From: Escherichia phage EF2-1 | Direction: 5' to 3' (one strand) | Length of the DNA stretch: 42,599 nucleotides | Sequence record: PQ571290 | In this document: piece after piece, positions 16,099 through 16,594 of the stretch | Layout of the letters: every line of letters begins with the position of its first letter | Numbering within the stretch: the first letter of the stretch is position 1 | Position numbers and translations under genes: made by a program | The notes under the pieces: model-generated | What the model was told of the DNA's origin: nothing | Database searches by the model: none | The model's input: the letters and a program-made list of their open reading frames with translations, nothing else

Positions 16099-16485
16099 AT
16101 GAATCTTAAAGCAACTGTCGTAGCAGGAGCATGTTTCATCATCCTGTTATACACGCACGGCTACTATCAATACCGCAGCGGCTGGAACGGAGGCAGGGCT
16201 AATCTAGTTTCGCAGCAACAGCAGAAAGCACAGGCTGAGTTAGCGAAGAAAACACAACGGCAGCAGCAGGACGAATCAAAGGCCGCCGCCGCTGACAACG
16301 AAGGCAAGACGAAATCAGAGGTGATTACCCGTGAAGTCGTTAAGTACATTAAAACGCCTGGTCGCAGCGTGTGCGCTTTTGACCCTGAGCGCGTGCAGCT
16401 CAAGTCCCGCGCCGTCGCAAACGCCAATTCCATCCCCGGATACGACGATGATGCAGCCGCCGTGCAAACTGGCTCCGCCAAGTAG
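16099..16485 (+). CDS. i-spanin (Rz-like inner membrane spanin)
   Basis: 128 aa; N-terminal TM segment then Gln/Ala/Lys-rich coiled-coil-like region; AAGGAG RBS; contains embedded out-of-frame lipoprotein gene. Confidence 0.6.
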   Translation: MNLKATVVAGACFIILLYTHGYYQYRSGWNGGRANLVSQQQQKAQAELAKKTQRQQQDESKAAAADNEGKTKSEVITREVVKYIKTPGRSVCAFDPERVQLKSRAVANANSIPGYDDDAAAVQTGSAK

Positions 16486-16594
16486 CGACGCCGACGAGGA
16501 TTTAGCTATCGACGTTCAGAACGCCGAATGCGTACGGCAACTGCGCCTGAAGGTGTTCATGTTGCAGGATTACGTGAGGAATATTCTGGAATAG
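16331..16594 (+). CDS. o-spanin (Rz1-like outer membrane lipoprotein)
   Basis: GTG start after GAGGTGA; lipobox LSAC; proline-rich; +1 frame overlapping the Rz-like gene and extending beyond it. Confidence 0.6.
   Translation: MKSLSTLKRLVAACALLTLSACSSSPAPSQTPIPSPDTTMMQPPCKLAPPSSDADEDLAIDVQNAECVRQLRLKVFMLQDYVRNILE

Follow-up and report, generated by a model that had tools for sequence, protein, structure and literature searches.

A predicted spanin pair of the Jersey family among the head genes of Escherichia phage EF2-1

Why should a phage carry the genes for the last step of host lysis among its head genes, some 7.5 kb away from the holin and endolysin genes with whose products they would act? 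Escherichia phage EF2-1 raises this question, as a pair of overlapping open reading frames (ORFs) at 16099..16594 (+ strand) of the stretch of DNA analysed here (record PQ571290, 42,599 nucleotides, hereafter the window), a 42.6-kb Kagunavirus (Guernseyvirinae) genome, had been interpreted from the letters alone as an Rz/Rz1-like pair of an inner-membrane i-spanin and an outer-membrane lipoprotein o-spanin. Our analysis almost certainly confirms this sequence-only reading, both as an observation and in its interpretation, for a gene family and a position among head genes that are already known. We put at roughly 93% the probability that the pair is a two-component spanin of the Jersey family, a member of the third functional class of lysis proteins in this Kagunavirus; with it EF2-1 would possess all three steps of a complete lysis system. 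Over 1.2 kb at the locus the DNA is 96–99% identical to that of Kagunavirus LM08P1, of the Escherichia BASEL-type phages Bas70, Bas75 and Bas76, and of ST20, 590B and others, and relative to its closest counterparts in GenBank and IMG/VR the EF2-1 pair is simply another allele, 3–4% diverged.

The first gene of the pair, that of the i-spanin (16099..16485, +), starts with ATG, has AGGAG 6 nt upstream and encodes 128 amino acids (aa). As had been proposed, the protein has an N-terminal transmembrane segment, a single hydrophobic helix of residues about 3–22 (coding part 16105..16164, +), for which the Kyte-Doolittle hydropathy over 15 residues reaches its maximum of 2.30 at residues 3–17 and ranges from 1.5 to 2.3 in windows starting at residues 1–8; the same scale applied to the whole 128 aa revealed no second hydrophobic segment. 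In its small size and in having just one transmembrane domain, at the N-terminus, the product has the form expected of an i-spanin, and a type II orientation is predicted for it. Past the transmembrane segment the sequence is polar and rich in Gln, Ala and Lys. A single-sequence AlphaFold2 model places helices at residues 3–64 and 69–83, with the transmembrane segment helical at a predicted local distance difference test score (pLDDT) of 80–91, low confidence past residue 65 and pLDDT <50 after residue 68.

The second gene, that of the o-spanin (16331..16594, +), is read in the +1 frame, shares 155 nt with the i-spanin gene and continues for 109 nt after its stop, in agreement with the earlier description of a frame extending beyond the Rz-like stop; its coordinates, its GTG start behind GAGGTGA and its Shine-Dalgarno sequence (GAGGTG) likewise held up. 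It encodes an 87-aa precursor and a predicted mature lipoprotein of 66 aa. The lipoprotein signal peptide (16331..16396, +) ends in the lipobox LSAC with Cys22 at nt 16394–16396, and the segment AACALLTLSAC fits the PROSITE PS51257-type lipoprotein pattern behind an h-region with a Kyte-Doolittle hydropathy of 2.16. An Asp at position +2 of a mature lipoprotein decides against sorting to the outer membrane; the predicted mature N-terminus here is CSSS, with Ser and no Asp at that position, as expected of an outer-membrane lipoprotein. The mature protein is proline-rich, as had been noted for an MMQPP stretch, with nine prolines in its first 31 residues including MMQPPC, and it carries further cysteines at Cys45 and Cys67. 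No C-terminal hydrophobic segment was detected in this lipoprotein; two proteins are present rather than a unimolecular spanin of the T1 gp11 type. When all ORFs and start codons of the window were scanned, the o-spanin was the only candidate in which a lipobox occurs together with both a Shine-Dalgarno sequence and an h-region of strong hydrophobicity.

Both proteins can be assigned to known families. The i-spanin matches phrog_2536 ('Rz-like spanin') over its full length in the PHROGs database (E 1.5e-56), and the o-spanin matches phrog_1267 (E 1e-20, residues 9–86) and phrog_5672 (E 4.5e-30, residues 41–87 only). In GenBank relatives the genes at the same place are labelled 'Rz-like spanin', 'putative spanin' or 'i-spanin / o-spanin'. 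Identity of the i-spanin amounts to 93.8% with its K1ind1 counterpart and to 68% with a gene of Jerseyvirus BPS11Q3 annotated as i-spanin, while the o-spanin is 69% identical to the curated BPS11Q3 o-spanin and has the same coordinates relative to its i-spanin; identities to the pair of a Dhillonvirus (the HK578 group) are 41% for the i-spanin and 45% for the o-spanin. Kongari and colleagues (2018; BMC Bioinformatics 19:326, PMC6139136) described a 'Jersey' i-spanin family with a matching o-spanin family in 27 phages, among them Jersey, SETP3, HK578, JL1, the Kagunavirus phages K1G, K1H and K1ind1-3, the HK578-like phages, and others. In that description the genes are 'overlapped' with a 155-bp overlap, the o-spanin Cys45 and Cys67 are constant, and the i-spanins are predicted to consist of two helices with a beta-strand-containing linker (PMC6139136). 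Because the overlapped architecture, the 155-nt overlap and Cys45/Cys67 are all shared and identity to the K1ind1 i-spanin reaches 93.8%, membership of the EF2-1 pair in the Jersey family can be regarded as established at the level of sequence. We see no substantial difference from other family members, with which EF2-1 also shares the proline-rich linker and the slot between decoration/MuF and scaffold genes. The PHROG matches, the annotated relatives, the conservation detailed below and the published family description (PMC6139136) together bear out the proposal of an overlapped i-spanin/o-spanin pair.

Conservation was assessed in related loci collected from IMG/VR (48) and GenBank (four), with dN/dS (the ratio of nonsynonymous to synonymous substitution rates) and frame counts taken from 42 distinct relatives of identical geometry. 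The geometry of the pair, the lipobox and two cysteines at fixed spacing from the lipobox Cys recur without exception in the 51 related loci that yielded the pair, which also upholds the lipobox of the sequence-only reading. One subgroup of Kagunavirus has its lipobox a residue further along (LASC, Cys23, versus LSAC, Cys22; L018–L034, 2733–2996), and the retention of the Cys through this shift argues for selection on the lipobox and not on a particular sequence. Most loci start the o-spanin with GTG, which several Jerseyvirus loci replace by ATG without a change of position. Neither the i-spanin nor the o-spanin frame contains an internal stop in the 42 distinct sequences, in which the +2 frame averages 12. 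Past the i-spanin stop, the o-spanin frame has a dN/dS of 0.069, with a diversity of 0.244 at third versus 0.033 at second codon positions, and this o-spanin-only stretch is under strong purifying selection; so is the i-spanin, with a dN/dS of about 0.27 throughout. The +1-frame ORF is thus more than a chance opening, since it is the sole strong lipoprotein candidate, keeps its lipobox and open frame and shows this low dN/dS. Invariant in the 42 distinct sequences are also Cys45 and Cys67 of the o-spanin and Cys92 in the periplasmic part of the i-spanin, such that the periplasmic cysteines expected for disulfides are in place on both proteins. Separately, one Kagunavirus-like contig (L042, 2501–3089) carries a 'separated' form of the pair, as described for FSL_SP-031, in which the overlap is 14 nt, the i-spanin has 118 aa and the N-terminus of the o-spanin is replaced.

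The position of the pair becomes clear from the gene order, which we derived from PHROG and Pfam searches and give here for the + strand. A group of small genes (5857–7480) is followed by a holin gene (7556..7864), a second gene of a PHROG holin family (about 7857..8129, its exact start approximate; the two holin-family genes match phrog_2359 and phrog_2508) and the endolysin ORF (8056..8595, the stop at 8595 and the start approximate; Pfam Phage_lysozyme, E 5e-26). Further small genes (8777–10343) then lead to the terminase genes for TerS (10524..11108) and TerL (11105..12355), and on to genes for the portal (12368..13837), a MuF-like head morphogenesis protein (14195..15295), a Hoc-like decoration protein (15295..15756), the spanins, the scaffold (16677..17378) and the major head protein (17381..18430). 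The pair therefore does lie inside the head gene cluster, flanked by decoration and scaffold genes, and 7.5 kb separate the endolysin stop from the i-spanin start on the same strand, as had been claimed. The two holin-family genes and the phage lysozyme domain confirm the identity of the distant cassette, and neither the neighbouring ORFs nor the lipoprotein scan of the window yielded a lipoprotein/type II membrane protein pair beside the genes at 7556..8595. These holin-endolysin genes are on the strand of the structural genes, just upstream of the terminase genes and among nin-like small genes (weak NinH and DUF2737 matches), a placement that resembles the lambdoid order. Nothing in the analysis lent support to the earlier label of an early-arm cassette. 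An in-frame upstream extension of the second holin gene (7749..8129, +) begins MKSLAWALSSLFSGC, with a lipobox-like motif, FSGC, which was rejected as a chance occurrence, having a weak h-region, overlapping the first holin gene and falling outside the holin family model, which starts at residue 52.

How unusual is this arrangement? The earlier judgement of an unusual gene order stands relative to lambda but not within Guernseyvirinae and Dhillonvirus, where we found the same order in every locus with visible flanks. Specifically, the spanin pair lies between decoration and scaffold genes in 44 of 44 IMG/VR loci with both flanks, as well as in Bas76 and Jerseyvirus BPS11Q3, and the homologous pair of Dhillonvirus StarDew lies between a head-morphogenesis gene and the scaffold gene; the distance from spanin to scaffold genes is about 83–85 nt in most of the relatives' loci. 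Published genome descriptions already record the split: Gp11 and Gp12 form the spanin complex of fBC-Eco01, apart from its holin and endolysin (PMC9825357), Golestan has its spanins at ORF7/8, holins at ORF66/67 and endolysin at ORF68 (PMC7203180), and SeF1 has spanins at Gp_009/010 versus Gp_063-065 (PMC9409062). Gene order as such is accordingly a common trait of the group, and one with a precedent in T4. That spanin genes are separable from holin and endolysin genes is thus documented both for this group of phages and for T4.

Comparison with better-known systems places the pair in a familiar class. Like lambda Rz/Rz1, it couples a type II inner-membrane protein with a proline-rich lipoprotein encoded in the +1 frame and has periplasmic cysteines, but there is no sequence similarity to Rz/Rz1 by Pfam or NCBIfam, the EF2-1 genes are overlapped instead of fully embedded, and the spanin gene is not the last gene of a holin-endolysin cassette. 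The beta strands predicted for the linker of Jersey-family i-spanins (PMC6139136) are a further difference. In T7, a podovirus, packaging and morphogenesis genes surround the spanin pair gp18.5/gp18.7, which lies between those for the terminase subunits, far from the lysozyme gene; these genes have an embedded architecture and are unrelated in sequence to the EF2-1 spanins. The spanin genes PseT.3/PseT.2 of T4 are likewise not near holin or endolysin (PMC6139136, Fig. 8 legend) and provide a precedent for unlinked spanins, in a 'separated' architecture and an unrelated sequence family. The T4 holin and endolysin genes are, however, also unlinked from each other, whereas those of EF2-1 form a cassette. 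The closest link to the classical arrangement comes from the lambdoid Klebsiella phage 2 LV-2017, where a homologue of the i-spanin (41% identity, E 1e-28) starts at the lysozyme stop codon and an unannotated homologue of the o-spanin (44% identity, E 4e-21) is present in the +1 frame, the pair being downstream of the Q antiterminator. Here the overlapped +1 layout and the conserved Cys pattern are the same as in EF2-1, with the pair in the classical position after lysozyme rather than among head genes, and the occurrence of a homologous pair straight after lysozyme supports by context the assignment to lysis.

If the pair acts in the way modelled for lambda Rz/Rz1 (PMC6139136), with the predicted topology, lipidation and i-spanin–o-spanin interaction, its position would pose no difficulty. 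The inner membrane would hold the i-spanin by its anchor, leaving the C-terminal domain periplasmic, and the o-spanin would receive its lipid at Cys22, be delivered to the outer membrane, on its inner leaflet, and bind the i-spanin C-terminus. Complexes of dimers linked by disulfides through the conserved cysteines would then cross the periplasm within the peptidoglycan mesh and stay harmless during late gene expression, until the holins (7556..8129) release the endolysin (to 8595), the wall is degraded and the complexes may fuse inner and outer membranes, completing lysis. Since such spanins would do nothing before the wall has been removed, their genes need not adjoin those of holin and endolysin, and a placement among the late genes would provide suitable timing.

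Several points weigh against reading the pair as a spanin. Our search of the literature found no experimental test of any Jersey-family spanin, and the complementation experiments of the study that defined the family covered T4 and T1 proteins (PMC6139136). Pfam and NCBIfam contain no family above cut-off for either protein, and only sub-threshold matches were obtained (DUF2514, E 0.0035; P2 Rz1 LysC, E 0.015; generic lipoprotein signals); the NCBIfam P2_Rz1 model scored 15.5 bits against a cut-off of 27, and EF2-1 presents neither a match to the lambda Rz/Rz1 family models nor their embedded architecture. The coiled-coil character of the i-spanin periplasmic domain, part of the original description, is suggested by a single-sequence model of low confidence. 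Finally, the signal peptide and linker part of the o-spanin has no purifying selection of its own, as substitutions inside the overlap follow the i-spanin frame (dN/dS about 1.1 in the o-spanin frame), which suggests that the signal peptide and Pro/Ser linker are free to vary as long as the frame, the lipobox and Cys45 are kept.

Could the pair serve some other purpose at the cell envelope? Lipoproteins such as Llp of T5 and Cor of phi80 have roles of the superinfection exclusion or receptor masking type, and a membrane protein and lipoprotein with such a role might have entered the head operon as a moron. The distance from holin and endolysin would suit this explanation, as would a variable upstream spacer (320–1120 bp) that gains and loses small genes, the promoter-like and terminator-like elements that bracket the pair (see below) and the lack of experimental lysis data for the Jersey family in the literature that we searched. 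A moron would be expected to occur sporadically, however, and no related locus in which the region could be seen was without the pair; a lambdoid phage has homologues of both proteins in the canonical slot after lysozyme; the combination of +1 overlap, type II membrane protein, outer-membrane-type lipoprotein, proline-rich linker and periplasmic cysteines is a spanin signature; and the window offers no other spanin candidate in spite of a canonical holin and a soluble-type endolysin. We therefore consider a non-lysis role very improbable and retain the spanin interpretation.

Still less credible is that the 128-aa ORF is the only gene, with the +1 lipobox ORF a by-product of its sequence or with just a 47-aa C-terminal part being made (from ATG 16451, where the Bas76 gene starts): that fragment alone does appear in many GenBank records and in phrog_5672, and the overlap substitutions do track the i-spanin frame, but the +1 frame is open from GTG/ATG in 42 of 42 distinct sequences against about 12 stops in the +2 frame, the lipobox is always present and retains its Cys through the LSAC to LASC shift, both the Shine-Dalgarno sequence and the start codon persist across relatives (some Jerseyvirus loci having ATG at this site), phrog_1267 aligns residues 9–86, the 47-aa product would have no export signal, and start-codon errors of this kind are reported as widespread by Kongari and colleagues.

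The practical value of the two-gene spanin model is one of annotation. Many GenBank records and the 47-aa profile phrog_5672 hold an o-spanin truncated to an internal ATG pair (16448/16451; 16448..16594), for example Bas76_0009, which starts at the equivalent of 16451, or the gene at 5839..5982 in locus L001. These 47-aa versions have lost the signal peptide and the lipobox, and thus many database records and one PHROG family carry an o-spanin without its lipoprotein signal. The 87-aa model initiated at GTG (16331) is the correct, conserved gene model, and in this respect the sequence-only reading, which had chosen that GTG, is better than the many GenBank records. Errors of this sort in o-spanin annotation are known to be common (Kongari et al., PMC6139136).

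A second question concerns how the spanin genes are expressed. The 342-nt spacer between the decoration and i-spanin genes holds several conserved elements. Just past the decoration gene stop is a terminator hairpin followed by T residues (15761–15778, +), and further on is a promoter-like, sigma-70-like element (15846..15874, +) consisting of TTGACT, a 17-nt spacer and the extended -10 TGn-TAAGCT, with the palindrome ACTATTCGAATAGT (15833–15846) abutting its -35 hexamer. All 25 Kagunavirus and Jerseyvirus sequences compared retain the -35 core and TGnTAnGCT without change, in spite of complete divergence of the spacer between them. A consensus promoter scanner reported no + strand promoter near the spanins, the element at 15846..15874 scoring below its threshold; a promoter function for this and the other promoter-like element around the spanins is suggested by the conservation patterns. 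In a transcript that would start here, a short 5′ hairpin (15883–15903, +) is followed by a 70-nt structured hairpin of three stacked, covarying helices (15905–15974, +), an AU-rich stretch and a terminator-like hairpin (16055..16084, +; GCCCCGC-TTTATG-GCGGGGC and a T tract that is interrupted). The stem of this last hairpin stops 24 nt short of the i-spanin ATG.

The 70-nt hairpin is conserved as a structure. All 15 distinct variants fold alike, and in a plain MAFFT alignment 85.7% of cells are paired versus 25–45% when the partners are slid, with none of 500 shuffles reaching the covariation score. A model-fitted alignment of 23 distinct sequences gives 88.8% pairing and again none of 500 shuffles; as such an alignment is biased in favour of the structure and its sequences share ancestry, the pairing figures are supportive rather than conclusive. 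The covariance model scores 92.8 bits in the window, where it detects a single copy and no second, which leaves a recurring, per-operon nut-like site unsupported for the EF2-1 genome. Within IMG/VR the element is confined to Guernseyvirinae; 17 pattern-scan matches outside this group were discounted as chance-like, as none gave a covariance-model match at E <=0.01 and their folds differ. Rfam (E up to 1) and ARAGORN returned nothing in or around the spanin locus, and no Rfam family corresponds to the hairpin. The terminator stem, too, shows compensatory changes across relatives (CG, GC and UA pairs). A resemblance by eye of this stem (CCCCGC/GCGGGG) to that of the E. coli type I-E CRISPR repeat was dropped, because the flanks mismatch and the Jerseyvirus stem differs. 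Relatives annotate a hypothetical protein in this region (Bas76_0007, corresponding to a 36-aa ORF at 15894..16004, +), and this ORF is interrupted by frameshifts or stops in four loci (L011, L015, L019, L020) and was not recovered from the Jerseyvirus loci and five further Kagunavirus-type loci, where stretches of the DNA are still conserved; it is probably not a gene and lies within non-coding RNA.

Only about 14 nt, filled by the ribosome-binding site, remain between the terminator tail and the spanin start codon, and spanin mRNA would thus most simply arise by read-through of a weak terminator upstream of the i-spanin ATG. We consider it possible, if on the doubtful side, that the spanins are the first genes after a regulatory RNA module (promoter, transcript of about 200 nt, weak terminator), or else that the module is a member of a family of trans-acting phage small RNA (sRNA) genes of which our searches gave no description. 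As a leader, the module might set the output of the spanins, and perhaps of scaffold and capsid, through regulated read-through. In lambda, pR′, the 6S RNA and tR′ precede the lysis genes and then the head genes, and the layout of the EF2-1 module is reminiscent of this arrangement or of a put-like cis-antiterminator. In several Kagunavirus genomes there is, besides the first, a diverged copy of the whole module, with the same promoter, 5′ hairpin and 3′ tail and a compensated long hairpin (L073, 11822–11894 (-); L106, 12254–12326 (-); L112, 11361–11430; L122, 6767–6836; L121, 8532–8603; L113, 4196–4267; L077, 1793–1864 (-); L069, 51–122), inserted between the equivalents of positions 3870 and 4414 of the window, which itself does not have it. 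Paralogous copies at another site of the genome speak for an sRNA-type gene family rather than a spanin-specific leader. Searches of the literature on virion proteomics or sRNAs for this group of phages returned nothing relevant. The module of promoter, structured RNA and terminator is the sole possibly new lead from this locus, and it is a lead and not a result: if transcribed, it would be an undescribed phage RNA element bearing on late and lysis gene control in Guernseyvirinae.

The spacer that holds the module is itself variable in length (window 15757–16098 and its equivalents in L001–L051), ranging from 320 to 1120 bp among relatives, with an extra minus-strand ORF in Bas76, and looks like an insertion hotspot.

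On the other side of the pair, the 82-nt spacer between the o-spanin stop and the scaffold gene contains a second promoter-like element followed by a hairpin (16595..16648, +). The element comprises TTGCCT, a 17-nt spacer and TATTCT (16595–16623), and the hairpin is CCGGGnGGCCCGG at 16636–16648. Both hexamers and the CCGGGnGGCCCGG stem are invariant across Kagunavirus and Jerseyvirus, with six spacer bases and the loop base varying, a pattern that would fit a promoter. The spanins may therefore be bracketed by two regulatory regions. The o-spanin stop codon falls inside a motif, GGAATAGT, that also precedes the upstream promoter-like element.

Two further observations concern the rest of the window. 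Seven promoter- or operator-like motifs of the form TGAATAGTnnnCTATTAT(a/g)T are scattered over it, at 853 (-), 4463 (-), 6054 (-), 8709 (+, degenerate), 14177 (+), 25697 (+) and 41064 (-); in this motif a palindrome, AATAG-N4-CTATT, overlaps the -10 sequence TATTAT, and ACTATTCGAATAGT upstream of the spanins is a related palindrome. The motif matches the 'phage promoter' consensus obtained with PHIRE for fBC-Eco01 (PMC9825357). The head operon is also interrupted by a minus-strand ORF of 94 aa (13867..14151; phrog_1273, function unknown) at a place where BPS11Q3 has a minus-strand 'amidase', and a 16-bp hairpin, TAAAACTAAGGCCCCGTTACGGGGCCTTAGTTTTA (13835–13869), stands between the portal gene and this ORF.

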